In this document: positions 30,258 to 55,484 of the stretch, piece after piece
Layout: every line of letters begins with the position of its first letter
How positions within the stretch are numbered: position 1 is the first letter of the stretch
Notes under the pieces: generated by a model
Told to the model about the DNA's origin: nothing
The model's input: the letters and a program-made list of their open reading frames with translations, nothing else
Database searches by the model: none
NCBI GenBank assembly: GCA_028291765.1
Contig: JAQGNR010000009.1
Span: forward strand, 3,223 to 67,222
Direction of reading: 5' to 3'
Length of the DNA: 64,000 nt
Source: Herbaspirillum sp.
Lineage (GTDB): Bacteria > Pseudomonadota > Gammaproteobacteria > Burkholderiales > Burkholderiaceae_D
Position numbers and translations under genes: made by a program

Positions 30258-31130
30258 TTAAATTTTCCTGGCAACAACAAGCCTTGATCCGCCTATAGGA
30301 AAATTGAAACCCATTTTAATAAGTACTAGCTCGACACTAAGTATTCGAAAAAAAAATGCATTTAGCCACGATGGAATTGTTAACTCTGCAGTGGAATCAA
30401 ATTGTTTGTCCGGTACTTTTTTCTGAAGAAATCTAGAAATCATCATGGCAGGAAGAAGTGATGTTATGAAAGACGTACTTTTGATCACGCGAAAACCTGC
30501 GGCCTCTATTTTTTGGAAGATGTCTGCGGCCGCATAACGTCGCTCATGCATAGCGTGCTCATCTGCATAACTCCACAGCCATGCATGCTGGGGAACAGTA
30601 AGCAACATCAAACCGTTGGGTTTTAGAGCTGTATACATCTGCGCGAGTACGTCCTGATCTTCCTTAATGTGTTCTAAAACGTCGAATGCGCCAATTACGT
30701 CAAATTCATTCTCGAAAGGAATGTTCCTGGCATCCATCTGCATAAACTTGGTAGCCGGCAAGCGCTCACTCGCAAAACCAAGACCCGCTATGAAAATTTC
30801 ACTTCCATACAACGTTGAATGAGGAAATTTTTTCGATATCCCGGACAAGACATATCCAGTGCCACAACCTATTTCCAGCAAGGATTTGAAATTTTTGCCG
30901 TATTTTTCAATCGCCCACATGAGCAACTTATTTCTGGATCGGAACCAAAAATTAGCTTCTTCTAAATGAGCAAGCCGTGAAAAATAGCTTGACTTAAACC
31001 CACCTCCCCCATGAGCGTAGTCTGGCGCATAGGATTCAAAACCATCCAAACGGACCGGGGCGAAATCACAGACGGGGCAGTTGCATATTGAAGATGCGTA
31101 ACATGCATTGCAGGAAAGGCAACGTTTCAT
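30258..31130 (-). CDS. Class I SAM-dependent methyltransferase with N-terminal Cys4 ribbon
   Basis: Contains MKRCLSCNACYASSICNCPVCDF, LLEIGCGTGY and FDVIGAFDVLEHI. Confidence 0.8.
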   Translation of the reverse strand: MKRCLSCNACYASSICNCPVCDFAPVRLDGFESYAPDYAHGGGGFKSSYFSRLAHLEEANFWFRSRNKLLMWAIEKYGKNFKSLLEIGCGTGYVLSGISKKFPHSTLYGSEIFIAGLGFASERLPATKFMQMDARNIPFENEFDVIGAFDVLEHIKEDQDVLAQMYTALKPNGLMLLTVPQHAWLWSYADEHAMHERRYAAADIFQKIEAAGFRVIKSTSFITSLLPAMMISRFLQKKVPDKQFDSTAELTIPSWLNAFFFRILSVELVLIKMGFNFPIGGSRLVVARKI

Positions 31131-31558
31131 AATCCATCCATATTTGATGCCTTGTTATCCGCAAAAACGAAAAATTTAAACGCAATGAAGAGAAAACTGG
31201 CCACGACGAAAATGGCCGAGACCTGAACCCATTGGTGTGCATAACCCAATTCATCAACGAAAATAATTAGGATAGCTAGATTAATACAATAGCCAAGAAA
31301 ATGAGCCATAAAGTAGCGAATACCCGAACCAAGCGCGCTTCCTTTGTGTGTAAAAGTCAGGCTACGGTTACCCACGTAGCCAATTGCAGCGCCGATTCCA
31401 TAGAGGAGTGTCATCGCAACTTTAGGCGCCACGCCAAGATAGGTGAGCAGCAAATAAACCAGATAACCGGCCGAGTTACTCACGATGCCGACGAGGGCAT
31501 AGCGGGTCAACTGTACGAATGAGTTTTTGGCTCTCTCAGCCATAGGAAAATTACTCAT
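31127..31558 (-). CDS. GtrA-family membrane protein
   Basis: A 143-aa protein, FVQLTRYALVGIVSNSAGYLVYLLL..., with four hydrophobic segments. It has an ATGA overlap with the downstream methyltransferase. Confidence 0.75.
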   Translation of the reverse strand: MSNFPMAERAKNSFVQLTRYALVGIVSNSAGYLVYLLLTYLGVAPKVAMTLLYGIGAAIGYVGNRSLTFTHKGSALGSGIRYFMAHFLGYCINLAILIIFVDELGYAHQWVQVSAIFVVASFLFIAFKFFVFADNKASNMDGL

Positions 31559-31664: not shown

Positions 31665-33278
31665 TCAATCAGATCGGCGGAGAAGCATAATCTGGTCAAT
31701 GTGTGAGATTTCTTTATAACCGGCCGCCCATACTTTGTCAGCTACGCATTTTTGTAACTGCTTATAATCTGGTGATGCGCTAAAAATTTTAAATAGCGGA
31801 CCATCTGAACCGTTGTCAAAAGAGAGTAATAAATAATCACTTGTTCCAATTCCCATTGGGAACAGGGAAATCGGATTGTTATTCCTGAAGAGTTTCCAAG
31901 TATTAAATGGCGGAGTCTCCGCGACACTCGCACCTTTCGGTATAAGACCAACCAATTTATCAGCTCGCGCTGATTCGTATAAGTTCGAAGAAAGGATTGA
32001 CGGGACTACATAGAGGTCGTTAAGCGGCGTAAAAAGGCCCTCTTTTGCGTATTTGTAATCCCAGTCGATAGTTGGTCCATATGGATTTTGAAAACACATT
32101 ACAAAACAAACCAAGAACATAAAACACGCGGGAAGACAATGATAAAAGCTGAAGTTTTTTTCGAATGGCTCTCGATGACACCACTTATAAAAGCTCACGA
32201 CACCGACCAGCCCCGCATAGACGACGAAAGGAAAATAAAAACTATGATAGTGAGTAAGCCAACCATCTTTCTCGGCGCCACCAATTGACACAATCACATT
32301 AGGCACCAACGTAATTAATGCAATAAGTGCCACACGCCATTGAAAGATAATTGCTACTAATAGGAAAACCAGATTGAAGAGTATTAATTTAATCAGGCCA
32401 GGACGAAATATATTTGCCATGACCTTATTGAAAGACAAAAATGATTTATATGCCTCGTGATTATCAACATTATTTTGAAATAAAAGATAAATGCAGATAT
32501 ATATAAATAGACCTAACGAAATGCTCAATACAAAAAAGATATTTTTCTTTGGGACTCCTTTATATAAAATAAGGCTGCTCAATGAAAACAATAAAAGCAG
32601 AGCCGCCGCACGCTCATGAATTGACGTTCCCGCGACGACAATCAGTGCGATGCCAATCATTTGCGATCGGGTCAATGTTTCTCGCTTTACAATTGGTCCG
32701 TACAGCGACAATGCGTACCACAATGCAAGAGGCATGAAAAGTCGATCAAAATAGAACCATCCTGCGGATGCTATCCGCCACGCTGGGTGCGCACATAAAA
32801 CGATAACGAACAAAAAAGCAAGATAGCTGGGTATCTTGGCTTTACGCAAATATATGTACGAGATTAACGGCAAACCGACAAAGGAAAAAATGTTGACCAT
32901 TGCGGCTGTAAACTCAGGCCCGACAAAGTATGAAATCGCCGAAAGGGGATAAACAATCAAATATGCATGCCCTATTAGAACATTGTACGGATCCGAATTC
33001 GCAACCGCGGCAAAATCAAACGTACAATATTGCCTAATTGATGTCATTCCGAATAACGGGAATGCATTTAAAAATGCACGTATGGCAGATGTCGTAGGCA
33101 GTCCATTTTTTAAGGTGTTATCAATCACATCCAAAAAAAAGGCAGTATCAATATCACCTATTCCCTCCTTTGCTTTCCAAAAGGAATAGAGTCCTAAAAT
33201 TATACAAAGACATGCTAAAAATAAATAACTAAGTACATCGAAGAAAAGCCCGAAGGTGAAGACATTCCGTTTTTTCAT
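31665..33278 (-). CDS. Large polytopic membrane protein (DUF2079/GT-C-like candidate); start uncertain
   Basis: Very AT-rich and hydrophobic throughout. It has a DTAFFLDVIDNTLKNG loop after the first helix. The maximal ORF starts with TTG 33335; ATG options are 33299 and 33278. Confidence 0.55.
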   Translation of the reverse strand: MKKRNVFTFGLFFDVLSYLFLACLCIILGLYSFWKAKEGIGDIDTAFFLDVIDNTLKNGLPTTSAIRAFLNAFPLFGMTSIRQYCTFDFAAVANSDPYNVLIGHAYLIVYPLSAISYFVGPEFTAAMVNIFSFVGLPLISYIYLRKAKIPSYLAFLFVIVLCAHPAWRIASAGWFYFDRLFMPLALWYALSLYGPIVKRETLTRSQMIGIALIVVAGTSIHERAAALLLLFSLSSLILYKGVPKKNIFFVLSISLGLFIYICIYLLFQNNVDNHEAYKSFLSFNKVMANIFRPGLIKLILFNLVFLLVAIIFQWRVALIALITLVPNVIVSIGGAEKDGWLTHYHSFYFPFVVYAGLVGVVSFYKWCHREPFEKNFSFYHCLPACFMFLVCFVMCFQNPYGPTIDWDYKYAKEGLFTPLNDLYVVPSILSSNLYESARADKLVGLIPKGASVAETPPFNTWKLFRNNNPISLFPMGIGTSDYLLLSFDNGSDGPLFKIFSASPDYKQLQKCVADKVWAAGYKEISHIDQIMLLRRSD

Positions 33279-33913
33279 AGTTTTTGGAATTAGATACATG
33301 TATTCGTTAGGAAAATTGGGATAAGCTTCTTGCAACGATTATGATTGCCCGGTATTTAACTAGGCGCGGCTATTATGGTTCCGAGCAAAATTAAGGCGGT
33401 TCCCAAACGCCCTCCTAAAACTCATCAACTCGCTCAAAGGCGTCCGGTAGAAAAATCAATGGGTCAAAACAGTGAAATGAGAAATTTCAACTCACCCCAA
33501 GAGTAGGAGGAAGTAACCAAAATTGGCAATATGCCACATCAAAGCCAGCTCCCCATAAATTGTAAAAATGATCGCGGCAACGATATAAATGCAGTCCGGA
33601 AATCTATCATCATTTTCTTCTCGTACTGCTAGGCCAAAGCCAGTTTGCCTTATGGGCCGCCATTATAAAGCATGTAACGTCAGCCTTTATGATCGAATAT
33701 GAACGGTACTCGTATAACAATCGACGTTAGATGAGCGCATTTTTACAACAGGACTACAAATCCCGGGCAGTCAATTGCGGGAACAGTATAATCAAGCTAC
33801 AACAGTAAGATTTGCCGATTCGCAATTAATTATATGTAACCGTGAGCGATTAGTGGCTGATAATAATTAGCTATATTAAAATCGCCAATTATCTAAAAAA
33901 TACATATATCTCA

Positions 33914-34840
33914 ATGAAGCTTTCCGTTGTCGCAACGCTTTACCAATCCGCGTCGCATATTGCCGAGTTTTATCAACGGGCAAGTGCTGTTGCGAGCGAA
34001 TTTGCTGGATCAGAATATGAAATAATTTTAGTAAACGACGGATCAACTGACGATAGTCTTGCCCTTGCAGTGCATCTTACCGAAAGAGACAGTCATGTCG
34101 TTGTAGTTGATCTATCCCGTAACTTTGGCCATCACAAAGCCATGATGACCGGTCTCGCCCAAGCCAAGGGGCAAAATATTTTTCTGATTGATAGTGACTT
34201 GGAAGAGGAGCCAGAGTGGCTTTTCAACTTTGCCGAGCAGATGGAGCATGATAGAAGTGATGTTGTGTATGGAGTACAGGAAAAGCGTAAAGGTGGACTC
34301 TTCGAGCGTTGGAGTGGTTATTGGTTTTATAAGTTATTCAATTTCCTAACAGGGCTTTCTCTTCCGGAAAATACTGTTACTGCACGTTTGATGACATGCC
34401 GGTACGTAGACGCTCTGCTGCGTCATGAAGAACGCGAGGTCTTTATGGCCGGCCTTTGTTATATAACTGGTTTCAAGCAGACGTGTCATCTAATAAGAAA
34501 ACACAGCAACGCCCCGACAACTTACACCTTTAAACGAAAAATGGCGCTACTAGTTAATTCAGTAACGTCTTTTAGTAACCTGCCCCTAATAAGTATTTTC
34601 TATATGGGAGCAATCATTTTTCTGATTGCCGCAGTTTACATAGTATATCTAGTGGTTAATTGGTCTCTTCTGAATACTCCGTTAAGCGGCTGGACCTCGG
34701 TAATGGCTTCTATTTGGCTACTCGGAGGCCTGATAATGTCGTCCATCGGCGTAGTTGGCATATATCTTTCAAAAATATTTTCAGAAACGAAAAGGCGCCC
34801 TTACACTATTATTCGACAAACATTTGGGCGAACCAAATAA
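33914..34840 (+). CDS. GT2, polyprenyl-phosphate glycosyltransferase type (ArnC/GtrB-like) with two C-terminal TM helices
   Basis: Contains MKLSVVATLYQSASHIAEF...IILVNDGSTDDS, DLSRNFGHHKAM and DSDLEE, plus hydrophobic segments near the C-terminus. Confidence 0.8.
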   Translation: MKLSVVATLYQSASHIAEFYQRASAVASEFAGSEYEIILVNDGSTDDSLALAVHLTERDSHVVVVDLSRNFGHHKAMMTGLAQAKGQNIFLIDSDLEEEPEWLFNFAEQMEHDRSDVVYGVQEKRKGGLFERWSGYWFYKLFNFLTGLSLPENTVTARLMTCRYVDALLRHEEREVFMAGLCYITGFKQTCHLIRKHSNAPTTYTFKRKMALLVNSVTSFSNLPLISIFYMGAIIFLIAAVYIVYLVVNWSLLNTPLSGWTSVMASIWLLGGLIMSSIGVVGIYLSKIFSETKRRPYTIIRQTFGRTK

Positions 34841-34868
34841 TGCTGAAATTTTTGGGGTGTTATTTCAA

Positions 34869-36059
34869 ATGAAACGAATATTGATAGTTGCAGGCGGGGA
34901 ATGGCAAATACCTATTATTCGCAAGGCTAAAGAACTGGGTATTTTCGTTGTGAACACGAATCTCTACCCCGATTCAGCCGGATTTGAGTTTGCAGATATT
35001 GGCCTTGTCGCAAACGTGCTCGATAGAGACAAAAACCTGGAATATGCGAGGCAATATAACGTCGACGGTGTGATAACGGATCAAAGTGACATCGCAGTAA
35101 CAACAGTAGCATATGTTGCTGAACAGCTTGGTATTCATGGCATAGGCACTGCGACAGCTGAACTATTTACAAATAAGCATGAGATGCGGAAGTTTTGCCA
35201 ACGCAATAATTTTCCAACACCTGCATATGAATTGTGTCGGAATATAGCTGACGCTATTCGATTCGTTAGAACGCACGGATTTCCTGTTGTGATGAAGCCG
35301 CCCGCCAATCAGTCTAGCCGGGGAGTTGCAAAAGTTACCTCCAACGATGAGTTAGAACATGCTTATGAATCAGCTTTGTTGCAAAGTAACGATAAAACAG
35401 TACTGATTGAAAAGTTTATTGGTGGTACTGAGCTAACGGTGGATGGTATTCAACTAAATGCCGGTAGCCATTATTGTTTGGCGACGTCTTGTAAAACACA
35501 TTACGCACACAATGAAATGGTTGCCAATCAATTATGGTTTAGCCAACGTCATGAACAAATCGACTACCTGGCATTGCACGAACAACATAATCGCTTAGTT
35601 GAATCAATGGCTTTGCCATACGGGTTAACCCATGCTGAATACAAATATGATGAAGGGAAGCTTTATCTCATCGAAGTTGCTGCACGTGGCGGTGGAACAA
35701 GAATTTCATCTGACATTGTGCCTCTTATGAGCGGTATGGATAGCAATGCTCTATTAATAAGAATGGCACTTGGGGAAAAAATAAGCTCGATCGAACCAAT
35801 ATTTCCAGATCGGGTGGCAGTATTAGACTTTTTTGAGTTTAAGCCTGGTCATGTAAAGGTAATTAAGGGCATTGAGCGAGTGCGTAACATGACTGGTATC
35901 GTGACCATCGGGTTGAATATCAAAAAAGATGATGTTATCGCGCTAGCGTCGGATGACCGAACTCGACATGGGCATGTCGTCGCGTATGCGGACGCCCCCG
36001 CAACTCTGCGAAAATTATTAACTGAAGTACACCAAACGGTACAGGTTTATTATGAATAG
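34869..36059 (+). CDS. ATP-grasp domain ligase
   Basis: Contains MKRILIVAGGEWQIPIIRKAKELG, FPVVMKPPANQSSRGV, LIEKFIGGTE and LIEVAARGGG. The start is taken at ATG 34869 rather than the track start 34755. Confidence 0.8.
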   Translation: MKRILIVAGGEWQIPIIRKAKELGIFVVNTNLYPDSAGFEFADIGLVANVLDRDKNLEYARQYNVDGVITDQSDIAVTTVAYVAEQLGIHGIGTATAELFTNKHEMRKFCQRNNFPTPAYELCRNIADAIRFVRTHGFPVVMKPPANQSSRGVAKVTSNDELEHAYESALLQSNDKTVLIEKFIGGTELTVDGIQLNAGSHYCLATSCKTHYAHNEMVANQLWFSQRHEQIDYLALHEQHNRLVESMALPYGLTHAEYKYDEGKLYLIEVAARGGGTRISSDIVPLMSGMDSNALLIRMALGEKISSIEPIFPDRVAVLDFFEFKPGHVKVIKGIERVRNMTGIVTIGLNIKKDDVIALASDDRTRHGHVVAYADAPATLRKLLTEVHQTVQVYYE

Positions 36060-36855
36060 CGTCCCCATTTTTGACAGCCTTACGCACCCTTTCCCTAATG
36101 GCAATTGGTTTCATCCGGAATATGATGGGAAAAACACAATCCAGCATTTGCTTTCCACAATGGAGGAAAACAACGTCAAATGGGCTCTTGCAGTAGGAAT
36201 GGGATCCAAAGTAGGCGCCTATGAAGAAAAAACATATGTTTCTTTTGTCCGTCATCATGCCGCCAATTTATTTCCAATAGCCTTTTTTGATTTTGAAGTG
36301 CTTGATTCAGGTATATCGATTAAAGAATATCTGCAACGCTTAAAAGATTTGGGATATGTTGGAATCAAGATTCACCCTCGGATATCAAGTATCAACTTAT
36401 CGAATGCGTGGCTGCCGAATATAATAACTGAGGCGAACAAACTTAACCTGGCAATTCTTCTTTGCACTTATTTTTGGAGCAAAGACAAGAAACTTTGTTC
36501 CAATACTCCCGAACAATTACTTACCCTCTTGTGTGAGGTACCTAATGAAAAGTTAATTCTGGTACACGGGGGGGCCGTCAGATTACTTGAAGTCGCTGAA
36601 ATTGCGAGGCAATTTCGAGAGACCCTACTGGATTTATCTTTCACTATTTGTAAGTATGAAAGAAGCTCGATTGATCTCGATATTCGATTCCTCTTTGAGA
36701 AGTTTGATCTCCGACTATGTGTCGGATCGGATAGTCCTGAATTCGGCGCATCCAAATTAAGGGAGCGCTTTGAATTGTTAACTGAAGGTTTGGATGAGAC
36801 AAAGAAAAAAAATATTGGGTACCGAAATTTGCAAACTCATCTCGGAATCGGTTAG
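36052..36855 (+). CDS. Metal-dependent TIM-barrel amidohydrolase-2-like protein
   Basis: Contains IFDSLTHPFPNG..., GIKIHPR, LVHGG and VGSDSP. It overlaps the ATP-grasp stop by 8 nt. Confidence 0.6.
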   Translation: MNSVPIFDSLTHPFPNGNWFHPEYDGKNTIQHLLSTMEENNVKWALAVGMGSKVGAYEEKTYVSFVRHHAANLFPIAFFDFEVLDSGISIKEYLQRLKDLGYVGIKIHPRISSINLSNAWLPNIITEANKLNLAILLCTYFWSKDKKLCSNTPEQLLTLLCEVPNEKLILVHGGAVRLLEVAEIARQFRETLLDLSFTICKYERSSIDLDIRFLFEKFDLRLCVGSDSPEFGASKLRERFELLTEGLDETKKKNIGYRNLQTHLGIG

Positions 36856-36998
36856 TGTCTTTAATTCTACCTTCGGTTGACAGGAAAGATACGATCGAGC
36901 GTTATTCGTCGCAATATAAAAATTTAGTTATGACCTGGCCGGCTATTTCCAGACCAAAATAATCTAGAGATAATAGGCCCCTCGTATGAGGAGTGAGC

Positions 36999-37083
36999 AT
37001 GAAGAAGAGCTGATACAACGACGAGCAGATTGTCAGGATCTTGCGGGAAGCGGCGAGTGATGAAGTGAAGCGGCTCAAGGCGA
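36999..37083 (+). mobile_element. Relic of an IS3-family orfA (transposase N-terminus), internally deleted and interrupted by a stop
   Basis: Hand translation gives MKKS*YNDEQIVRILREAASDEVKRLKA, which resembles IS3/IS407 OrfA (MKKSR.TDEQI..ILREAE...EAKRLKALE) with the HTH core missing. Confidence 0.45.
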
Positions 37084-37489
37084 ATGGTCGCGCTATGAGG
37101 GTAGCGCTATCAATTTTCTAATCGATGATTTTTTGGAAATCAATCTGGATGAAAAATTTGACTTTGTCGTCGCATCCGGAATATTTAACCACCGCCTCAC
37201 CGAAGTAAATAATTACGATTTAATTGAAGCGACTATTGCTAAAGCACTTTGATTGAGTCGTGATGGCATTCCTTTTGATTTTCTTTCCGATAAGGTCGAT
37301 TATCAATTGGAACATACGTTTCACAGTTCGCCGGAGAAAATAATGGCCATTGCGTACAAGCATTCTCGGAATGTAATGCTCCGCAACGATTACATGCCAT
37401 TTGAGTTTTCTTTATTTATTTTTAAAGATGACTCATTCTCAAACGAAGATACGCTTTTTAACCGATTCAAAGCACATCCACATAAGTGA
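37082..37489 (+). pseudogene. 5'-truncated class I methyltransferase with an in-frame TGA
   Basis: Translation gives ...FDFVVASGIFNHRL...IAKAL*LSRDGIPFDFLSDKVDYQLEH.... The SAM motif I region is absent, and there is an in-frame stop at 37250-37252. Confidence 0.55.
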
Positions 37490-37516
37490 GCTTGAATTTT
37501 TTAAGGGATATAAAGA

Positions 37517-38221
37517 ATGGACTACGCTAGCGAAATACTTGATTTTTGTATTGAAAACCGTGTTTCAACTACTGAGTTGGCCGACGCACTCGGTAAATCA
37601 GGAGTACTACCGAAAGTTGGACCCGTTAATTTCGATCTGTACCGTGCGGGGCGTGTGCGCACCATATTTACTGCAAATAATTCCAACTATGCCGTACATG
37701 AACAAGTACGGGACGTTCAGAAAGGTGAAGTCGTCATCGTTTTTTCGCACCTATGCGACGGACGGGGAATTGTTGGGGATCTGATCGCCAAATATGCTTT
37801 GCTTTATAAAGGCGCGGCAGCAGTAATAGTGCAAGGTTTCATTAGGGATGCAGCGGAAATCAGGCGCCAGGGATATCCTGTTTGGTCTGAGGGAGTGTCA
37901 CCACTTGGATGTTTTAATATTCCAAGTGAGCCTTATCCTAAGGATCTTGAAGAAAAAATGAGAGCTATCTATGAGGGTGGAATAGCAGTTTGTGATGACG
38001 GTGGTGTCACGGTGATTCCTCCTGACAGATTAAACGCAGACATGTTGGCACGTTTGCAAAGAATAGAGATGCAAGAAGATATTTGGTTCTTCTGTCTTGA
38101 TACCTTGAAGTGGGATACCAAAAAAATTGTTTGTGATAAAGCTTATCTTACAGAACGAGATCTATTATCAAGCATACACATTGAACATTTGAGAGAATTA
38201 TCCCAGCCTCTCGATAAATAA
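37517..38221 (+). CDS. RraA/HMG-aldolase (demethylmenaquinone methyltransferase-like) family protein
   Basis: Contains TTELADALGKSGVL..., GEVVIVFSHLCDGRGIVGDLIAKYALLYKGAAAVIVQGFIRDAAEI and YPVWSEGVSP. Confidence 0.7.
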   Translation: MDYASEILDFCIENRVSTTELADALGKSGVLPKVGPVNFDLYRAGRVRTIFTANNSNYAVHEQVRDVQKGEVVIVFSHLCDGRGIVGDLIAKYALLYKGAAAVIVQGFIRDAAEIRRQGYPVWSEGVSPLGCFNIPSEPYPKDLEEKMRAIYEGGIAVCDDGGVTVIPPDRLNADMLARLQRIEMQEDIWFFCLDTLKWDTKKIVCDKAYLTERDLLSSIHIEHLRELSQPLDK

Positions 38222-38281
38222 ATAATATACACAGCCGTGCCGACACTGAATGGCACGGCATCAAGGGAGTAGTGAATCGCA

Positions 38282-39475
38282 ATGGATGACATTATATTTT
38301 CCGCTCTGTCGAAGGTTTGCCAATCCTACTCTGTGGCCTTTGCGGATTACGTGCGTGCTTGCGAAAAAAAAGGACAACGGATCGTAAAATTGCAGACGGG
38401 CGACCCCGATTTTCCGACTCATCCCAATATCATAAGTGCTGCCCATGATGCCTTGCTAAAAGGGGAGACCAAATATTGCGATAGCAGGGGACTATTTGAT
38501 TTACGTGGAGCTCTCGCCTCCAAGCTTCTAGCTGAAAACAATATTAAGTGCTCTGCTAACGACAATATACTTATCACGCACGGAGCGGTTCATGGCATAG
38601 GAATGGCGATACGCGCGCTTGTCAACCCAGGTGATGAATGCGTCATTATCGAGCCGTACTGGCGTGCATACGAGATGGATGTGATCCTCGCAGAAGGAAT
38701 ACCGATCATCGTGCAAACGACACCAAAAGACGGTTTCCAACTCGTGGCAGATAGGGTTATCGAGCGTTTTACGCCTCGAACCAAATTAATCATTCTCAAT
38801 ACACCCAACAACCCCTCTGGCGCCGTATATGGGGAAGCTGAACTTCGTAAATTGGTAACTGCTGCAGCTGCCCGTGGCATTTACGTAATATCCGATGAAG
38901 TCTATGAGTCAATAGTTTTTCAAGAATCCAAACATTTCAGCATAGCCTCGAATCCGGATGTATTTGACTGGGTTATTTCGGCTTTCAGTTTCTCAAAAAC
39001 ACACGCAATGACCGGCTGGCGCATTGGATACATTGTTGCAAGTAAGAACGTAATTGACGAAATCCTAAAACTGAGTCAATTTTCAGTAACTAGTCTTTCC
39101 CCTTTTACGCAAATGGCCGGGATAGCCGCATTACATGATCCGGAGGCTCAGAACCACGTCAAATTAATGCGAAATGAGTATGAAAAAAGAAGAGAAAGAA
39201 TTATTTTTTCTATAAATGGATCATGGCTAGAAGAAGCTATGATTCTGCCGCAAGGCGCTTTTTATTCCATGATTGATGTAACACGATTTGGACTCCCCTC
39301 CTTGGAATTGGCAAAAAAAATCGTAGATGTGACTAATGTATCGTTCACTCCAGGAATCGCTTTTGGTGACCGAATGGACGGCTATTTACGAATGTGTTTT
39401 GCAACGTCCGATGCCAATATTGATTGCGCGATTAATGCACTGCTTAATATCGAGAAATTATGGCGTTCAAATTGA
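38282..39475 (+). CDS. PLP-dependent aminotransferase, class I/II (aspartate aminotransferase fold)
   Basis: Contains LNTPNNPSGAVY and the SFSKTHAMTGWRIGY PLP-lysine motif. Confidence 0.85.
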   Translation: MDDIIFSALSKVCQSYSVAFADYVRACEKKGQRIVKLQTGDPDFPTHPNIISAAHDALLKGETKYCDSRGLFDLRGALASKLLAENNIKCSANDNILITHGAVHGIGMAIRALVNPGDECVIIEPYWRAYEMDVILAEGIPIIVQTTPKDGFQLVADRVIERFTPRTKLIILNTPNNPSGAVYGEAELRKLVTAAAARGIYVISDEVYESIVFQESKHFSIASNPDVFDWVISAFSFSKTHAMTGWRIGYIVASKNVIDEILKLSQFSVTSLSPFTQMAGIAALHDPEAQNHVKLMRNEYEKRRERIIFSINGSWLEEAMILPQGAFYSMIDVTRFGLPSLELAKKIVDVTNVSFTPGIAFGDRMDGYLRMCFATSDANIDCAINALLNIEKLWRSN

Positions 39476-39594
39476 AACGCCTTGCTACCTAAGACAAATT
39501 ACGAAGATTCGTGACGAAGTGCAGAAGATTCAATGGACAATAATCCGATTATAGTGCTCCAAAAAACGGCAGCCCAGAAATATTTACCGAGCAA

Positions 39595-40734
39595 ATGAAC
39601 GAAAAAAAAATCCCATTTAACTGGCCACATATGACCGGTAAAGAATTGCAGTACATTGCAGAAGCCCATGCAAATGGATGTTTGGCTGGCGATGGACCTT
39701 TTACCAAACTATGCCATGAATGGCTGGAAGAGCGTACTAAATGCTCTAAAGCATTACTGACGCACTCATGTACCGCCGCCTTAGAGATGGCCGCTTTGCT
39801 GCTGGACATTCGTCCCGGCGATGAAATTATTATGCCTTCCTACACGTTTGTTTCGACAGCAAACGCATTCGTCTTGAGAGGTGGCGTGCCGGTATTTGTT
39901 GATATTCGGGAAGATACGTTGAACTTGGATGAGAGTTTGATTGAGGCAGCTATTACGTCACGTACACGCGCGATCGCTCCTGTTCATTATGCTGGTGTAG
40001 CCTGTGAAATGGATACGATCATGTCCATTTCCAAGCATCATGGACTGAAAGTGGTGGAAGATGCCGCCCAAGGCGTGATGGCAAGCTATAAAGGCCGTGC
40101 TTTGGGCAGCATCGGTGACCTGGGGGCCTATAGTTTTCATGAAACAAAGAATGTGATTTCGGGAGAAGGCGGTGCGCTGTTGGTCAATGATCCGCAGTTA
40201 GTGTTGCGCGCTGAAATTATCAGAGAAAAAGGTACCGATCGTAGTCGTTTTTTTCGAGGCGAAGTCGACAAGTACACATGGCAGGAGGTCGGCTCATCCT
40301 TTCTACCTGGAGAATTAATTGCTGCCTTTCTTTCGGCACAACTTGAAGAGGGAGACCGGATCACTCAAAAGCGTTTAGCTGTGTGGCAGCGTTATCACGA
40401 GTTACTTCACCCCTTAGAAACCAGCGGCGCTCTTCGTCGTCCCATCGTACCTGATGAATGCCAGCATAACGCGCACATGTATTACGTGATACTTGCAGAT
40501 GGAATTGATCGGCAGAAAGTATTAGAAGAATTTAGACATGAAGGTATTTCGTCTGTGTTCCATTACGTTCCGCTTCATTCATCGCCAGCAGGTCAGAAGT
40601 ACAGTAGGGTCCATGGGACGTTGGATATGACAGATCGTCAATCCGAGCGATTAGTTCGTTTACCCCTTTGGGTCGAACTAACGGATGTGGAGCAAAATAG
40701 GGTCGTTGACTTACTCACCCGCGCGGTTTCTTGA
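39595..40734 (+). CDS. wecE: dTDP-4-amino-4,6-dideoxy-D-galactose (Fuc4N) transaminase-like, DegT/WecE family
   Basis: Long blocks match my recollection of E. coli WecE: EMAALLLDIRPGDEIIMPSYTFVSTANAFVLRG, HYAGVACEMDTIM, VEDAAQGVMASYKGRALGSIG, FHETKN, AEIIREKGTDRSRFFRGEVDKYTW, VFHYVPLHSSPAG and SERLVRLPL. Confidence 0.88.
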   Translation: MNEKKIPFNWPHMTGKELQYIAEAHANGCLAGDGPFTKLCHEWLEERTKCSKALLTHSCTAALEMAALLLDIRPGDEIIMPSYTFVSTANAFVLRGGVPVFVDIREDTLNLDESLIEAAITSRTRAIAPVHYAGVACEMDTIMSISKHHGLKVVEDAAQGVMASYKGRALGSIGDLGAYSFHETKNVISGEGGALLVNDPQLVLRAEIIREKGTDRSRFFRGEVDKYTWQEVGSSFLPGELIAAFLSAQLEEGDRITQKRLAVWQRYHELLHPLETSGALRRPIVPDECQHNAHMYYVILADGIDRQKVLEEFRHEGISSVFHYVPLHSSPAGQKYSRVHGTLDMTDRQSERLVRLPLWVELTDVEQNRVVDLLTRAVS

Positions 40735-40756
40735 CAATCAAAGCATTCATTAAATT

Positions 40757-41167
40757 TTAGTTCATGGCATTGCGTTTGCCGAAGCCGAAAACCCAAAATC
40801 GTGTCAAAAGAAACGAGGGAATTGATCCAAGTAGCGCCGCGACCAGAAAACCAGTGCGTTCACCATACGGTGTACCAAACCCTGCATCGATTACGTGGCG
40901 ACATATCGGTGAAAGAAACGATACCAAAGCCATAATGATCAAATTCGACACGACAAAACGCCAAAACAGTCCGCGTCGACCAAATATCCAAGACCGCTGA
41001 ATCAAAAAATTGACAATGATGAGCGGCATATAAGTTAACGCGCTTGCAAAAGAGTAAGCAATAGCTGAGTCGCTGCTCATCATTTTATAGATCAATAATT
41101 GCAGTGCCGTAGCGGCGACACCAAGAATGCCCCCATTAATAAAAAATTTTAGATATTGACGAATCAT
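40757..41167 (-). CDS. GtrA-family membrane protein
   Basis: MIRQYLKFFINGGILGVAATALQLLIYKMM..., with four hydrophobic segments. ATG 41167 gives an ATGA overlap with the upstream stop; the track start at 41227 is less likely. Confidence 0.7.
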   Translation of the reverse strand: MIRQYLKFFINGGILGVAATALQLLIYKMMSSDSAIAYSFASALTYMPLIIVNFLIQRSWIFGRRGLFWRFVVSNLIIMALVSFLSPICRHVIDAGFGTPYGERTGFLVAALLGSIPSFLLTRFWVFGFGKRNAMN

Positions 41168-41964
41168 GCTCGTTTGCGAATCACAATAATTTGATGCAAA
41201 GACCAATGCCGTGCAAGTGGCCGACACAGGGATTCGATCAAAGCCAATGGACGAGCCATGAATGAGGGCATTAGCTGACGGAAATTCAGACCGCCAGAAA
41301 ACAGGTAGCGTAATGCATTCAATTCGAAACCGCGATGGACGATTTCCAATTGTTTGCCAAACAAAGCTTCAAATCGCAGCAAATCACGCTGAAACACAAT
41401 GTGTGCCATTGCCTGATTTGCCCCCGAAAGAGGTCCACCGATCTCAGCAGTACGCCAATTTGGTGCGTTGGGATCGAAATGCTCGTCACTATGCAAATGT
41501 CGATGCAATAACTGAGAAGCAAAACCCCCGTGCGGTTCGATCAGGATACAGCCGCCGCCCGGGCGTAGAACACGCGTCAACTCTGCAAAGAAACTCTCTG
41601 GGTCGGGCAAATGATGAAATACATTAATGGCATATATGCAACGTACCGAATCGTCATTCAGCGCCATTGCCTGGGCATTGATCTCCATGTCAATGTGAGG
41701 CCCTTTTCGAACATCAGAAGTTATAAGTGCAGGACGTATACTCTTGAAAAAGCCGGCTCCTGTACCAAGCTCAATCTCCGTTCCCGAAACAACAAGGTAC
41801 CGGTCACATAAGCTAGCCATATCACGATAGAACGTTTCGAACGTTGAACGAAGCAACCGTTTTTTGAGCAAGATACTGGTATGTATATCAAGCAGAATAT
41901 TGTCGTCGACATCAACTCCGCGTACCTGGGAAGCGTAAAACCATTGGCGTAATTGCTTGAGCAT
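41164..41964 (-). CDS. Class I SAM-dependent methyltransferase
   Basis: Contains EIELGTGAGFF, IYAINVFHHLPDPESFFAELTRVLRPGGGCILIEP. Confidence 0.75.
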   Translation of the reverse strand: MLKQLRQWFYASQVRGVDVDDNILLDIHTSILLKKRLLRSTFETFYRDMASLCDRYLVVSGTEIELGTGAGFFKSIRPALITSDVRKGPHIDMEINAQAMALNDDSVRCIYAINVFHHLPDPESFFAELTRVLRPGGGCILIEPHGGFASQLLHRHLHSDEHFDPNAPNWRTAEIGGPLSGANQAMAHIVFQRDLLRFEALFGKQLEIVHRGFELNALRYLFSGGLNFRQLMPSFMARPLALIESLCRPLARHWSLHQIIVIRKRA

Positions 41965-41968
41965 GTAT

Positions 41969-42775
41969 TCAATCCTCTAATGTAGAAACATGTTGTGCAG
42001 CCTGATTGGCTAGGAAACCCGTAAGACTATCTTCATTAACGGGGATCGGTATATTTAGCAATTTAGCGGTACGTAGCCCCAAAACGATTAACGAGGCTGG
42101 TACAAAAATAATCCAGGGACGATGTCCAACTTCGGCAGCCGCATTCAACACTAACTGACGCAGACTGAATAATTGTTTCTCAAATAGATTTGCTTGAGGC
42201 ACTCGCTCGTAATTCGCGGCCAAGGTCAAGGTTTCCCGGCAAAGCTTTTCAATCGTAATGACAGGCACCAGCCCATACCCCCCATCAGGCAATGGAATTA
42301 GCGGTAAACGGCGAGCCCATTTACAAATCCTGCCATATATTCCTCCAGTTCCCAAAACTAGTCCTGGACGAACAATGACAATATCTGTCGCACCGGCCAA
42401 GCTCTGCTCTATGGCCAGCTTGGTCTGTCCGTAAAGCGAAGTGGCATGATCCCCAGCTGAATATGAAGAGAAGAAAATTTGCCGTCCGACACCCGCTTCA
42501 CGTAATTGGGTGACACACTTAAGCGTTTCATTCAGTGTCAATTGCGCACCGGCTGCCCCGGAAAAGTCATGCGCCAGATGGAAAGCACAGTCCACATCTT
42601 CCAGCGCAATCGCGGGTATCGGCGCCCCGAAGGCCCATTTCAATGTAATACCACCGTTAAAATTCTCCACCGCGCCGGAGCGACAAAGGGTGATTACCTC
42701 ATGGCCCTGTTCAAAGGCATAGCGGGCCAGATTGGCACCGATGAAGCCAGCACCACCGATGATTAATATCCGCAT
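41969..42775 (-). CDS. NAD-dependent epimerase/reductase (extended SDR)
   Basis: Contains MRILIIGGAGFIGANL and SLYGQTKLAIE (YxxxK). It overlaps the upstream GMC gene by 13 nt. Confidence 0.8.
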   Translation of the reverse strand: MRILIIGGAGFIGANLARYAFEQGHEVITLCRSGAVENFNGGITLKWAFGAPIPAIALEDVDCAFHLAHDFSGAAGAQLTLNETLKCVTQLREAGVGRQIFFSSYSAGDHATSLYGQTKLAIEQSLAGATDIVIVRPGLVLGTGGIYGRICKWARRLPLIPLPDGGYGLVPVITIEKLCRETLTLAANYERVPQANLFEKQLFSLRQLVLNAAAEVGHRPWIIFVPASLIVLGLRTAKLLNIPIPVNEDSLTGFLANQAAQHVSTLED

Positions 42776-44343
42776 TTCAAGGTCTCGTCTGCGATACGGG
42801 CGGCATTGGCCATTAGGGTCAAGGAATGATTTTTGGCAGGTAAGCTAGGAAGAACGCTGCCATCTACAATACGGACCCGCTTGCTATCCCACAATCTGCC
42901 ATCGATATGTGTCTCAAAAGGCCCAGGATAATGGCGCATCGGCAAACAGGCGGCATGGTGAAAACCCCAGCCCGGGGGAGACATTGAGGCAAGACGTTGA
43001 AGCGAATAAGCACCCAACGGCCGTAGCGCAGCAAGCAGTTTTTGGATCATATTGCCTTGAGAAAGTCGATGAGGATAATCAATCCTAATCGATCCATCAG
43101 ATTCGACACTAAGTTGATTTCCAGCAACAGGCTTGGACGTTTCCCAAATTTGGGCGACTAACATGCCCCCGATCAAATTAGGTAATAGTCGTATAGCGGA
43201 ATTTAAGGGTAACGGAATATCGGCAAGCAAGTCGGCCCAAAGAAGCGCGCCAGGATAATAAAAGCTGATCATGTTGCTGCGGGCCAGTCCGCCAAGAGTT
43301 GCCACGAGTTGTATGGGGAAACTTTGGGACGGGAAAGCGGCGCCGAATTTTTTTGGAATGAAGAGCGGCAGCAATGTCGGGGGATGGTCGATAAACGGCA
43401 GTTTCCGTCCGAACTCCTGCTTGTTCAATAAAACCAGACGAGCAGTTTGCATCGTGCCGCAACCTAAAAGAAGATGTCGAGCCCTTATCGTTTTGATTAC
43501 ATCATCGTTTCCTACGCACAGATCGATCTCGACATGCTCTGCCGATTCACGATAAGCGACCAGACGATGACCACCGAGATATGTCAAGCTTCCGCGAGTA
43601 ATCAATTCTTTGAGCGTACGCCGTGCTGTGTAAATCCCAGACTGTTCAGTAGAAAAGAATTCGGTTTCACCGAATTCATGTTGACTATATCCCCGATGCG
43701 GTTGAGTAAGAACGGCCAGTCTGGAGCGGCCTAATCGGAAATTTGCCTCATTAGTACGCTTGCGACGCATGCGATAACGGGTGAGAAGATATTCCGCAGC
43801 TGAAACGATCGGCGCCGGCGGCAGCATTCCTGTAGTTTCACCTAGAAAGCTATGCATATCGTCAACCTCACCTGCGATGCCGATATGTGCCTCCAGGTCT
43901 GCATAGTAACTATCTAGCGCGGCGGCTTTGAATGGCCAATCGCCGGCTTCGTCCAAATCTTTGTCGGTGTAGCGAAATAGTTGAGCGCCCCAGGCGTTTG
44001 ACATTCCCCCTGCAGCATAGCTGCCGGCGCCCTGGAGGAGACATTTATTTGCATCATCGAAGACGCGAAAAGTTTTGCCACCCAATATGTAACCCACGTT
44101 TGGCAAGCGCAATTTGGCATGAACGCGGCCGGGGTCAATCAGGTTCCCAAGCATCTCCCAGCGATGACCAAGCAAGGATTCGAAATCCCCGGATGCGAGT
44201 CCTCCGCGGAGCGTTGCGTGAGGAAAATTCCCCTGCGGTAAATCTCCTACATCGACGATGCAAACGTCCTTCCCTTCAAGACGGCGCCCTGCAGCGACTC
44301 CCGCTGGGCCGGAGCCCACGATCACATAATCAAAGGAGTCCAT
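42763..44343 (-). CDS. GMC-family FAD-dependent oxidoreductase
   Basis: Contains FDYVIVGSGPAGVAAGRRL and the C-terminal VDGSVLPSLPAKNHSLTLMANAARIAD. Confidence 0.75.
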   Translation of the reverse strand: MDSFDYVIVGSGPAGVAAGRRLEGKDVCIVDVGDLPQGNFPHATLRGGLASGDFESLLGHRWEMLGNLIDPGRVHAKLRLPNVGYILGGKTFRVFDDANKCLLQGAGSYAAGGMSNAWGAQLFRYTDKDLDEAGDWPFKAAALDSYYADLEAHIGIAGEVDDMHSFLGETTGMLPPAPIVSAAEYLLTRYRMRRKRTNEANFRLGRSRLAVLTQPHRGYSQHEFGETEFFSTEQSGIYTARRTLKELITRGSLTYLGGHRLVAYRESAEHVEIDLCVGNDDVIKTIRARHLLLGCGTMQTARLVLLNKQEFGRKLPFIDHPPTLLPLFIPKKFGAAFPSQSFPIQLVATLGGLARSNMISFYYPGALLWADLLADIPLPLNSAIRLLPNLIGGMLVAQIWETSKPVAGNQLSVESDGSIRIDYPHRLSQGNMIQKLLAALRPLGAYSLQRLASMSPPGWGFHHAACLPMRHYPGPFETHIDGRLWDSKRVRIVDGSVLPSLPAKNHSLTLMANAARIADETLKCGY

Positions 44344-44824
44344 ACCAAGTCTTTTGCAAACGTCCGTGGATTAACCTGAACAGAGCCGAGGTCATAATAA
44401 AAACCATACTTGTCAGAGCTCTTGCAAATCCGCCTGAACAACGCACGAATTCGGAATGGCTTGCGTCTGATTCCGCCAGATATGACAGCAACAATAACTT
44501 TGCGCTCAAGATGTGGCGTTTTGTGCCGCCACGCAACCAGGGTTCTATGCCCATGGCGTCTAACTGTCGAGCGACGACAATGGATACTGTACCCAGTTGA
44601 AGTGGGGGGGCTGTACGCAATTCTTTAATTTCCTCGTGCGCACGAAAATATCTATCGATGATTTCGGAAGATGGATCTCTGTGGAATAGGCAACGATGTA
44701 AATAACATACCTCTTGCTTCATCGCCTCGCGTTCAATCGCTGGCGATGCTATATCCGCAAGAGAGGCATCAGTATTTTTCAATTGATTGTTCACATCCTC
44801 AGCGATTGAGAAGTTCACGTTCAA
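44330..44824 (-). CDS. Hypothetical protein (no family recognised); start uncertain
   Basis: The ORF is wedged with overlaps between the GT2 and the GMC oxidoreductase. Candidate starts are TTG 44824, GTG 44818 and ATG 44722. It contains a C7 tract. Confidence 0.4.
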   Translation of the reverse strand: MNVNFSIAEDVNNQLKNTDASLADIASPAIEREAMKQEVCYLHRCLFHRDPSSEIIDRYFRAHEEIKELRTAPPLQLGTVSIVVARQLDAMGIEPWLRGGTKRHILSAKLLLLSYLAESDASHSEFVRCSGGFARALTSMVFIMTSALFRLIHGRLQKTWYGLL

Positions 44825-45731: not shown

Positions 45732-45752
45732 CAAAAATTCTCTCATGCAAAA

Positions 45753-48439: not shown

Positions 48440-48542
48440 AACCTCAACTCTATTTCGCGAAACCACTTGCAGATGCCACCAATGACCCGAAACTGAAGGC
48501 AACAAACCTTCAATATGCGCAATCAATTTGACTTTCGCTCCA

Positions 48543-55482: not shown

Positions 55483-55484
55483 TT

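Follow-up and report, generated by a model that had tools for sequence, protein, structure and literature searches.

A Herbaspirillum gene island that may build an N-acylated 4-amino-6-deoxy sugar for Arn-like decoration of a surface polysaccharide

What becomes of the sugar made by a WecE-type aminotransferase when no acetyl- or formyltransferase accompanies it and an ATP-grasp ligase is encoded nearby? The question is raised by a gene island in the lipopolysaccharide (LPS) region of Herbaspirillum sp. (assembly GCA_028291765.1, contig JAQGNR010000009.1, positions 3,223 to 67,222), analysed here within the whole 64,000-nucleotide stretch, which we call the window. The island is a tight run of genes on the + strand (33914-40734), in the order GT2 glycosyltransferase, ATP-grasp ligase, amidohydrolase-fold protein, methyltransferase pseudogene, RraA-like protein, class I aminotransferase and WecE (Table 1). 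An initial annotation, which had recognized five of these genes, proposed a pathway to an amino-acid-acylated 4-amino-4,6-dideoxyhexose. Its five open reading frames (ORFs) do lie where it had placed them, on the + strand, and every family assignment is upheld, by Pfam and NCBIfam or, for the amidohydrolase, by a structural model. The rmlA and rmlB genes that it had reported are also in the window, and its statement that the usual acyltransferase is missing is borne out: there is no N-acetyltransferase or N-formyltransferase among the scanned ORFs of the window (almost every one of 150 aa or more, a few short or nested ones excepted), the sole acyltransferase being an Acyl_transf_3 membrane O-acyltransferase. 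What it had overlooked is the methyltransferase pseudogene, the GT2 gene that opens the operon and a divergently oriented GtrA and GT-C gene pair. The reading that we prefer, and on which the balance stands about level, is that the island encodes the cytoplasmic half of an Arn-like lipid-carrier system that decorates a surface polysaccharide with an N-acylated 4-amino-6-deoxy sugar.

Do these genes belong together? The comparison set, taken at one genome per species, consists of 80 loci with a homologue of the ATP-grasp ligase from at least 10 phyla, including Proteobacteria, Campylobacterota, Acidobacteria, Planctomycetes, Actinobacteria, Spirochaetes, Hydrogenedentota and many Bacillota. Cultured bacteria that carry the cassette include Cohnella sp. 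CFH 77786, Paenibacillus montaniterrae J40TS1, Aliarcobacter vitoriensis CECT 9230, Roseburia lenta NSJ-9, Mediterraneibacter glycyrrhizinilyticus and Butyrivibrio sp. MC2013. Neighbours were counted within about 10 kb of the ligase, and many of the negatives in these counts, like most of the loci that lack WecE, are truncated contigs. A WecE orthologue (50-66% identical) is present in 55 of the 80 loci, an ArnC/GtrB-like GT2, usually adjacent to the ATP-grasp gene, in 59 and a WecF-like GT56 in 11; one or the other glycosyltransferase, never the two together, is found in 70. Similarly, an RraA-like protein occurs in 35 loci and a DmpG-type 4-hydroxy-2-oxovalerate aldolase (NF006049, 267 bits, above the cutoff of 229) in 14, and these are likewise never found together, so that 49 loci have one of them. 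Other recurrent neighbours are an amidohydrolase-fold protein (24/80), an intact methyltransferase at the position equivalent to the pseudogene (23/80), RmlA or RmlB (23/80), ArnE/F-like EamA pairs (13/80), and GT-C enzymes of the PMT_2, DUF2079 or YfhO type (26/80). Because the same genes adjoin an ATP-grasp homologue in dozens of unrelated genomes, their grouping in the island is far beyond chance. The co-occurrence that the initial annotation had suggested looking for is thus found for four of its five genes; the class I aminotransferase, with 7 of the 80 loci, is not a conserved member of the cassette.

Two of these patterns bear directly on the chemistry. WecF-like GT56 enzymes are the family that uses dTDP-Fuc4NAc (Fuc4NAc being the N-acetyl form of 4-amino-4,6-dideoxygalactose, Fuc4N), and since GT56 and GT2 are mutually exclusive across 70 loci, the ligase product would be the donor for either a Fuc4NAc-type or a lipid-phosphate transferase. 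As for the acid, the strongest argument that the acyl donor comes from a 4-hydroxy-2-oxo acid is the interchange of two unrelated class II pyruvate aldolases beside the ligase. The idea, already present in the initial annotation, that an aldolase-made acid feeds the ligase is therefore backed by the DmpG-type substitute in 14 loci without RraA. Furthermore, an RraA-like protein is found in 23 of the 27 loci whose ligase is at least 45% identical to that of the window.

Gene order can be compared most closely in locus L001, whose ligase is 76% identical to ours: GT2, ATP-grasp, amidohydrolase, methyltransferase, RraA, aminotransferase, EamA, two further genes and WecE. Its proteins are 74-84% identical for every island gene, and the order and the gene overlaps match. 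They also match in the Methylophilus locus L002, in which a WecF-like GT56 is followed by ATP-grasp, amidohydrolase, methyltransferase, RraA and WecE, and then by Wzx and glycosyltransferase genes. The loci L077, L078 and L081 have the operon WecE-GT2-ATPgrasp-EamA-EamA, and in L016 it reads RmlA-.-RmlB-.-YfhO-WecE-ATPgrasp-RraA-Hexapep-PMT2-EamA-EamA-GT2 (each '.' being an unclassified ORF). Locus L008 (4511-9441), from a metagenome-assembled genome labelled 'uncultured Klebsiella sp.', has a divergent GtrA homologue beside a cassette of GT2, ATP-grasp, amidohydrolase, methyltransferase and RraA; no WecE was found within its 17 kb. Enterobacteria usually carry wecE in the cluster for enterobacterial common antigen (ECA), and the amino sugar of L008 could be supplied in trans from there. 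The L008 version of the cassette has no DNA match in the complete genomes of E. coli.

The loci with a DmpG-type aldolase and no RraA (L036, L040, L041, L045, L047-L050, L052, L053, L055, L057, L058 and L070) come from Lachnospiraceae and Spirochaetes; the gene at 12828-13868 of L070 is an example. Most of them encode, beside the ligase, a conserved 329-aa protein that has no family match, and they are often near genes of nonulosonic-acid type (CMP-sugar synthetase, GT52-like).

With respect to the ligase itself, profile searches of the PDB gave 4DIM (8.7e-32) and the L-amino-acid ligase BL00235 (3VOT, 8e-31), the latter being its best characterised solved relative. Its homologues fall into at least 634 clusters at 90% identity, which makes the family a large one; a look-up of the exact ligase sequence found no record, and a plasmid collection gave only distant relatives of 26-30% identity. 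From its sequence and its neighbours, this enzyme probably N-acylates a dTDP-4-amino-4,6-dideoxyhexose, forming an amide. The company that it keeps (WecE, GT2 or GT56, aldolases) suggests a sugar amine and a non-standard acid as substrates, and since the product would go to a WecF-type transferase or a lipid-phosphate GT2, the ligase would act on the dTDP-sugar, in the slot of WecD, VioB or a formyltransferase. It is bound to the 4-amino-4,6-dideoxyhexose pathway and not to uronic acids; of the two targets that the initial annotation had allowed, the WecF-like GT56 beside the cassette in 11 loci favors the amino sugar over the uronic acid. In an uncultured Aliarcobacter (L032, 10001-11881) the ATP-grasp and methyltransferase domains are fused into a 626-aa protein, a Rosetta-stone arrangement that places the two in one pathway. 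A neighbour-joining tree of the ligases resolves clades that correspond to the accessory genes: one with RraA, amidohydrolase and methyltransferase, to which the window belongs, one with RraA only, one with the DmpG-type aldolase, and one with no such gene or a PaaK-like one.

As for the amino sugar that would be acylated, the best PDB match of the window WecE is E. coli WecE (4PIW, 501.6 bits), with ArnB second at 171 bits, and the gene probably encodes a dTDP-4-keto-6-deoxy-D-glucose 4-aminotransferase that gives dTDP-Fuc4N. The NCBIfam subfamily model that it matches carries the name of the gluco product, whereas orthology to E. coli WecE suggests Fuc4N, so that the galacto rather than the gluco configuration at C4 is a probable assignment. 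The source of the dTDP-4-keto-6-deoxyglucose is RmlA and RmlB, which are shared with the rhamnose pathway and encoded outside the island proper.

What acid, then, would be attached? The best PDB match of the RraA-like protein is 3NOJ (2.2e-13), an aldolase for 4-hydroxy-4-methyl-2-oxoglutarate (HMG) and 4-carboxy-4-hydroxy-2-oxoadipate (CHA). Its R123 and D124, which we take to be the catalytic arginine and the metal-binding aspartate, align with R110 and D111 of the window protein, a pair conserved to at least 90% among 37 homologues from the cassette. The cassette proteins form a subfamily separate from LigK, with a conserved extension at the C-terminus (residues about 183-210) that LigK does not have. 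The enzyme looks catalytically competent and is predicted to be a class II metal-dependent pyruvate aldolase of the HMG/CHA type that builds the skeleton of the acid.

The aminotransferase is closest to the dicarboxylate-specific aspartate aminotransferases (AspATs), both in the PDB (1J32, 1GD9 and 1B5P, 216-230 bits) and in NCBIfam (archaeal AspAT NF041091, 315.8 bits, under the cutoff of 550). It is likely to be a specialised AspAT paralogue and is predicted to aminate a 2-oxo dicarboxylic acid. Since close orthologues (at least 61% identical) are confined to L001 and L004, it is a recent gain within the sub-clade formed by these two loci and the window, and most relatives of the cassette probably attach a 2-oxo or hydroxy acid instead of an amino acid. 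The amino-acid-acylated sugar of the initial annotation is thus possible for that small sub-clade and does not extend to the majority of loci, in which the aminotransferase is rare.

The amidohydrolase-fold gene overlaps the ligase gene by 8 bp. In searches of the PDB its single sequence returned noise, and a 23-sequence profile gave only weak matches to 3CJP and to the C-terminus of ACMSD. Many homologues carry a precomputed match to PF04909. An AlphaFold2 (AF2) model with a mean predicted local distance difference test score (pLDDT) of 94.4 was more informative: Foldseek matched it to 3IRS (template modelling (TM) score 0.79, E 3e-11) and then to ACMSD, dihydroxybenzoate decarboxylase and LigI, with probability 1.00. 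The family has at least 409 homologue clusters at 90% identity, and its invariant residues are D8, H12, K106, H108, H172, D194 and D227. The characterised members of the ACMSD/LigI branch are decarboxylases, lactonases and hydratases, and the fold accordingly suggests, as candidate roles, that the protein hydrates or decarboxylates the acid or acts on a lactone or lactam. The protein is not obviously an amidase; the superfamily name given by the initial annotation holds, and hydrolysis of an amide is not required of this branch.

Taken together, these assignments would form the following pathway. RmlA and RmlB would provide dTDP-4-keto-6-deoxyglucose and WecE would convert it to the dTDP-4-amino-4,6-dideoxyhexose, likeliest Fuc4N by orthology. 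The RraA-type aldolase would join pyruvate to a second 2-oxo acid, in the simplest case another pyruvate, to give 4-hydroxy-4-methyl-2-oxoglutarate, which in this lineage the AspAT-like enzyme would turn into 4-hydroxy-4-methylglutamate. In relatives with an intact methyltransferase one or more methyl groups could be added, and the ACMSD/LigI-like protein might process the acid further. The ATP-grasp enzyme, in place of the usual acetyl- or formyltransferase, would then activate a carboxylate as the acyl phosphate and form an amide on the 4-amino group of the dTDP-sugar. The ArnC/GtrB-like GT2 would transfer the N-acyl sugar to undecaprenyl phosphate, GtrA would flip the lipid-linked sugar, and the GT-C protein would attach it to an acceptor, probably the O-polysaccharide of the window that leaves by the ABC transporter. 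The weakest step is the identity of the acid, for which 4-hydroxy-4-methylglutamate is the most likely candidate here on family-level chemistry.

There is a chemical precedent for such a group. Amides of the 2-oxoglutaramate type cyclise spontaneously to 2-hydroxy-5-oxoprolines. In the O-antigen of Vibrio anguillarum V-123, according to a table in PMC10609480, viosamine is N-acylated with 2,4-dihydroxy-3,3,4-trimethylpyroglutamic acid. The open-chain form of this acid is the 5-amide of 3,3-dimethyl-4-hydroxy-4-methyl-2-oxoglutarate; its skeleton is that of 4-hydroxy-4-methyl-2-oxoglutarate with two C-methyls where the 2-oxo group activates the chain. An HMG aldolase and a methyltransferase would yield that skeleton, an analogy drawn from the glycan structure. 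Two other acyl groups, 3-hydroxy-2,3-dimethyl-5-oxoprolyl and 3-hydroxy-3-methyl-5-oxoprolyl, were considered as products and rejected, as their carbon skeletons do not come from a pyruvate-pyruvate aldol.

How would the sugar leave the cytoplasm? The GT2 has two C-terminal hydrophobic helices and full-length NCBIfam matches to PgfS (173 bits, the best) and ArnC (122 bits, the second), both under the equivalog cutoffs; it is predicted to be a polyprenyl-phosphate sugar transferase. The nearby GtrA is a candidate flippase for the undecaprenyl-phosphate-linked sugar. Next to it is the gene for a 537-aa membrane protein with about 10 hydrophobic segments and no useful Pfam match, even at E <= 1. 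Its AF2 model (pLDDT 84.5, predicted TM score (pTM) 0.87) has Foldseek matches in the PDB at E <= 0.005 that are all GT-C enzymes (STT3, DPY19, AftA, ArnT and PglB; probability 1.00, TM 0.36-0.50), and the modelled fold makes it a plausible final transferase for the lipid-linked 4-amino sugar. Homologues of this protein are few, with 12 among 5.8 billion proteins and none in the 80 loci; one (L083) lies in a WbqC-GT2-hexapeptide acyltransferase-EamA-[homologue]-DegT cluster and another, in Herbaspirillum (L085), is near GtrA and WbqC-GT2 genes. The trio of GT2, GtrA and GT-C protein implies delivery on undecaprenyl phosphate and decoration in the periplasm, and the main O-polysaccharide is exported by an ABC transporter, since the window encodes Wzm and a Wzt with a Wzt_C domain. 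The core idea of the initial annotation, an unusual N-acyl sugar in the O-antigen, is largely supported; the implied delivery, however, is periplasmic decoration and not cytoplasmic assembly of the O-unit.

In the window one enzyme of the cassette is dead. An apparent 660-bp gap between the amidohydrolase-fold and RraA-like genes (36855-37517) is filled by the remains of a class I methyltransferase that depends on S-adenosylmethionine (SAM). In an alignment with the genes of L001 and L002, which are intact (227 aa), its first ~80 nt and last ~390 nt are homologous, and between them (about 36934-37100) is a foreign segment of ~170 bp with a fragment of OrfA from an IS3-type insertion sequence (IS), 'MKKS*YNDEQIVRILREAASDEVKRL...', 75% identical to plasmid-borne transposase genes of the IS3 family, at their 5' end, from Caballeronia and Burkholderia. 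The IS3 remnant replaces the SAM-binding part of the enzyme, whose SAM-binding motif is lost; in addition, the gene has lost a single base pair at two places near its 5' end and carries an in-frame TGA at 37250-37252. The subfamily has only generic class I methyltransferase matches in NCBIfam and the PDB, which do not tell a C from an N or an O target, or the acid from the sugar as substrate. Because this gene is dead, the window product, if the operon is expressed, is predicted to lack the methylation made by its relatives, and the killed methyltransferase thus predicts a serological (structural) variant.

Mobile DNA is evident elsewhere too. L001 is flanked by genes for a phage-type integrase and for Mu and IS21 transposases (1-540 and 18014-19010), and just upstream of its GT2 is a truncated WbqC gene; mobile DNA appears to carry the cassette, which seems to have taken the place of a module of the WbqC/hexapeptide-acyltransferase type. 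In the window, a fragment of the N-terminus of an IS21-like transposase, with its helix-turn-helix region (ISRRLGISRNTVRRYIR), is followed by an apparently truncated glycosyltransferase-like ORF (the two within 21196-21995), which is more evidence of IS-driven remodelling of the LPS region. A scan for promoters and terminators (33200-41000) gave sites no commoner than in shuffled sequence and thus says nothing about how the operon is organised.

Several observations weigh against the preferred reading. The route and the acid are inferred from sequence, fold and gene context, the enzymes of the cassette being uncharacterised and the cassette unlinked to a glycan. The RraA-like protein misses the LigK equivalog cutoffs by a wide distance (NF006731, 61.4 against 179 bits; TIGR02798, 48.9 against 304.5), and members of the RraA family are also oxaloacetate decarboxylases or non-enzymatic regulators. 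An aldolase is missing from about 30 of the 80 loci, from which it follows that the ligase family can use other acids, and the rarity of the aminotransferase makes the amino-acid step lineage-specific. The HxH motif of the amidohydrolase fold is incomplete in the main family, its first histidine being an invariant Leu10, and is retained in a divergent Campylobacterota/Paenibacillus branch. The pairing of the GT2 with GtrA and the GT-C protein is one of adjacency, in a window that has two more GT2/GT-C-type modules. The dead methyltransferase and the IS remnant may mean decay or polar effects. Finally, because the ligase clades follow taxonomy as well as accessory genes, their agreement with the latter is supportive and not decisive.

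Which other explanations could account for the cassette? The acid that the ligase joins to the 4-amino group might be a standard amino acid (Gly, Ala, Asp or Glu); the aldolase, the methyltransferase and the amidohydrolase would then tailor the sugar or the residue or serve elsewhere. N-acetylglycyl and aspartyl Qui4N occur in enterobacterial O-antigens (Qui4N being 4-amino-4,6-dideoxyglucose, viosamine), the closest solved relatives of the ligase include L-amino-acid ligases and it has the LAL_C2 domain; moreover, about 30 of the 80 loci have ligase, WecE and GT2 without an aldolase, so that a common metabolite must suffice for some members of the family. Amide-linked standard amino acids on O-antigen amino sugars are well known (reviewed for E. 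coli in PMC7685785). We nevertheless consider this explanation rather improbable, as it leaves unaccounted for the interchange of two unrelated pyruvate aldolases, the RraA that accompanies 23 of the 27 closer ligases and the way in which the ligase clades track the type of aldolase; most loci without an aldolase have ligases of the remotest clade (30-37% identity), perhaps with another specificity. A transient acyl group, like the formyl of the Arn pathway, is a different proposal: the ATP-grasp enzyme would acylate the amino sugar, drawing the transamination onward and producing the substrate of the GT2, and the amidohydrolase-fold protein, as an analogue of ArnD, would strip the group off, so that a free, positively charged amino sugar remains. 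The architecture does mirror ArnB, ArnA, ArnC, ArnE/F and ArnT, and the amidohydrolase gene directly follows that of the ligase. Yet this protein is missing from most of the GT2-bearing loci, has no membrane segment and has decarboxylases, lactonases and hydratases, not deacylases, as its fold neighbours; it also occurs in 10 loci on the soluble-donor GT56 route, where deacylation of a lipid-linked sugar is not expected, and three enzymes dedicated to it (aldolase, methyltransferase and aminotransferase) would be a waste on a group that is discarded. We think it very unlikely.

More doubtful still is amidation of a sugar carboxylate, in which an amine derived from the aldolase and aminotransferase would be joined to a uronic acid and WecE would be a mere neighbour. 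ATP-grasp enzymes do activate carboxylates, uronic acid amides are present in O-antigens and capsules, and the aminotransferase could supply the amine partner. But this enzyme is missing from 73 of the 80 loci, and among the recurrent neighbour families there is no UDP-glucose dehydrogenase or other uronic acid gene; those that do recur are WecE, RmlA/RmlB, the WecF-like GT56 and the ArnC/ArnE/ArnF-like genes, and we give the idea hardly any credence. The remaining alternative concerns not the chemistry but this one copy, which could be a decaying, horizontally acquired remnant without a product, the IS3 event having silenced RraA through WecE or broken the pathway. Consistent with this are the ruined methyltransferase (IS3 fragment, frameshifts and nonsense codon), the second IS fragment, the position of the nearest relative, L001, between integrase and IS21/Mu-type transposase genes, and a GC content of 40-45% in the island against 57-60% in the core LPS genes with which the window opens. 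The other operon genes, however, are full-length with catalytic residues kept, covering 99-100% of homologues that are 74-84% identical, and natural relatives without the methyltransferase (L012, L017, L060 and the 'RraA only' clade) retain the rest, for which reason we regard decay as improbable, if a little less so than the two preceding explanations. We therefore return to the Arn-like decoration reading. Its extension to the other loci is a more tentative matter, somewhat short of an even chance: a widespread, undescribed surface decoration in which an ATP-grasp enzyme N-acylates a dTDP-4-amino-4,6-dideoxyhexose with an aldolase-built acid (RraA- or DmpG-made and optionally methylated, aminated or cyclised), the product then following an Arn-like or WecF-like route.

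Table 1. Features of the window considered in the text, island genes first.
Feature	Position	Strand	Basis or detail
GT2, ArnC/GtrB/PgfS type, 308 aa (first gene of operon)	33914-34840	+	Pfam Glycos_transf_2 93.9 bits
ATP-grasp ligase, L-amino-acid-ligase-like	34869-36059	+	Pfam ATP-grasp_4 52.1 bits (gathering threshold (GA) 27); LAL_C2 47.6 bits (GA 29.4)
Amidohydrolase-superfamily TIM barrel, ACMSD/LigI branch	36052-36855	+	Pfam Amidohydro_2 22.3 bits, below GA 26.4
Class I SAM-dependent methyltransferase pseudogene	36855-37489	+	Three-frame translation; DNA alignment to L001/L002 genes
RraA-like protein	37517-38221	+	Pfam RraA-like 71.2 bits (GA 24.5)
Class I aminotransferase, AspAT Ib type	38282-39475	+	Pfam Aminotran_1_2 207 bits
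WecE orthologue	39595-40734	+	TIGR02379 653 bits (cutoff 434.85); NF008687 625.8 bits (cutoff 375)
GtrA-family small membrane protein	31127-31558	-	Pfam GtrA_DPMS_TM 63.6 bits
Polytopic membrane protein, GT-C fold, 537 aa	31665-33278 (start possibly 33335)	-	AF2 and Foldseek
rmlA	55485-56426	-	Pfam NTP_transferase 267 bits
rmlB	56375-57454	-	Pfam GDP_Man_Dehyd 320 bits
rmlC, within rmlA/rmlB/rmlC block	54937-57454		
rmlD	4600-5529		
Second lipid-carrier-type module	40757-48601	-	
GtrA of second module	40757-41227		
Short-chain dehydrogenase/reductase (SDR) of second module	41969-42775		
GMC-type oxidoreductase of second module	42763-44343		
GT2 of second module	44799-45773		
Third module	22080-24721	-	
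Acyl_transf_3 membrane O-acyltransferase	48543-49514		
Methyltransferase-GT2-GT1 fusion and Wzt	49529-54159	-	
IS21-like transposase fragment	21196-21570		
Core LPS genes waaA, kdoO and waaC	1400-4589	-	kdoO (Kdo hydroxylase) 419 bits
Sugar C-methyltransferase-type genes	10142-11392 and 61891-63228 (both -)		Methyltransf_13 + Methyltransf_14, TylC3-like

The window has further features of interest (Table 1). A second lipid-carrier-type module comprises genes for a GtrA protein, a methyltransferase, an SDR, a GMC-type oxidoreductase, a 164-aa ORF and a GT2, and also encodes an 876-aa polytopic membrane protein without a Pfam match; its oxidoreductase and SDR recall the two-step, DprE1/DprE2-like epimerisation of a lipid-linked sugar. 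In a third module a 606-aa PMT_2-type GT-C protein is encoded directly downstream of a GT2. This suggests several independent periplasmic decorations on the same polysaccharide. A 1057-aa methyltransferase-GT2-GT1 fusion adjoins the Wzt with its C-terminal carbohydrate-binding domain, the same arrangement as in the chain-terminating, cap-recognising ABC-transporter O-antigen systems of the WbdD/WbdA kind. The two C-methyltransferase-type genes indicate branched-chain or C-methylated sugars elsewhere in the LPS. The GC content is about 58-60% in the core LPS genes and 40-52% in the polysaccharide region (about 9 to 57 kb), and two island features have their nearest relatives in Burkholderiales (Herbaspirillum, Caballeronia), a hint of a betaproteobacterial host.

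Exotic N-acyl groups shape the antigenicity of O-antigens and cell-wall glycans, the enzymes that make and attach them are mostly unknown, and the cassette offers a concrete set whose breadth runs from Proteobacteria to gut Lachnospiraceae. If the assignment of the ligase is confirmed, an ATP-grasp N-acylation step would be added to nucleotide-sugar biochemistry. If the wider reading is true, the genes behind orphan N-acyl groups, for example the trimethylpyroglutamoyl group on viosamine in V. anguillarum, would be identified, and hydroxy-methyl-glutamyl or oxoprolyl amino sugars would be expected in Methylophilus, Aliarcobacter, Cohnella and many gut Lachnospiraceae; the Arn logic (aminate, acylate, load, flip, transfer) would then extend to the decoration of polysaccharides in Gram-negative and Gram-positive bacteria alike, and the cassette would be a genomic marker for predicting unusual surface epitopes.

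It remains to set the cassette beside the systems that are already described. We know of no ATP-grasp enzyme described as N-acylating a dTDP-amino sugar, nor of a description of this combination of genes elsewhere; a literature search found no paper that joins ATP-grasp with viosamine, with WecE, or with RraA plus glycosyltransferase plus aminotransferase, and the cassette was not described there. In the passages on amide-linked amino acids in the E. coli O-antigen review (PMC7685785), these substituents are given and the attaching enzyme is not named.

The closest parallel in overall logic is the Arn (Pmr) pathway. In the Arn pathway, and by prediction here, a DegT-family 4-aminotransferase makes a nucleotide-linked 4-amino sugar, acylation of its amine follows in the cytoplasm, a GT2 of the ArnC type loads the sugar on undecaprenyl phosphate, a small membrane protein flips it (GtrA here, ArnE/F-like pairs in many relatives) and a GT-C enzyme transfers it in the periplasm, ArnT being among the fold matches of the window protein. 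The differences are nonetheless considerable: the sugar here is a dTDP-6-deoxyhexose (WecE/Rml) rather than UDP-4-amino-4-deoxyarabinose (UDP-Ara4N), acylation would be by an ATP-grasp enzyme with a free acid rather than by a formyl-tetrahydrofolate transferase, there is no ArnD-type deformylase and there are dedicated acid-making enzymes, and the likely acceptor is a polysaccharide rather than lipid A. No window protein reaches an Arn equivalog cutoff. The three-component GtrA/GtrB/GtrC systems that glycosylate O-antigens and teichoic acids, including CsbB/YfhO and the Pgf system of Streptococcus mutans, are similar in that a helix-tailed GT2, a GtrA protein and a GT-C enzyme are encoded together, and in Bacillota the cassette has YfhO, PMT_2 or DUF2079 proteins beside it; the known examples, however, move plain glucose, N-acetylglucosamine or similar sugars from UDP-sugars, whereas the cassette adds a full pathway for an N-acyl-4-amino-4,6-dideoxyhexose.

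The ECA and O-antigen pathways for dTDP-Fuc4NAc and Qui4NAc share with the cassette the precursor and the aminotransferase family and, in the 11 GT56 loci, the WecF-like transferase. They differ from it in that the WecD/VioB acetyltransferase is replaced by an ATP-grasp enzyme and its acid-supply enzymes, and in that the exit in the window is a lipid-phosphate GT2 and not WecF. For the acid, the nearest parallel is protocatechuate 4,5-cleavage (LigK/ProA, LigJ, LigI), where an RraA-fold aldolase with the Arg-Asp pair is also found beside an Amidohydro_2-superfamily protein. The sequence likeness is at the level of the family, and in a glycan context the aldolase would be expected to work towards synthesis; the cassette RraA has its C-terminal extension, and the cassette amidohydrolase is without the first His of HxH. 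Finally, the L-amino-acid ligases (BL00235, BacD, RizA) have the same ATP-grasp fold and LAL C-terminal domain and suggest the predicted amide formation through an acyl phosphate, and the ATP-grasp domain of Campylobacter jejuni Cj1438 forms a glucuronamide; for the cassette enzyme, by contrast, a nucleotide-linked amino sugar is predicted as the amine and an aldolase product as the acid. Each of the protein families, like the Arn and Gtr logic, is known; their combination, a predicted ATP-grasp N-acylation of a dTDP-amino sugar fed by a dedicated pyruvate aldolase and tailoring enzymes, is to our knowledge new.

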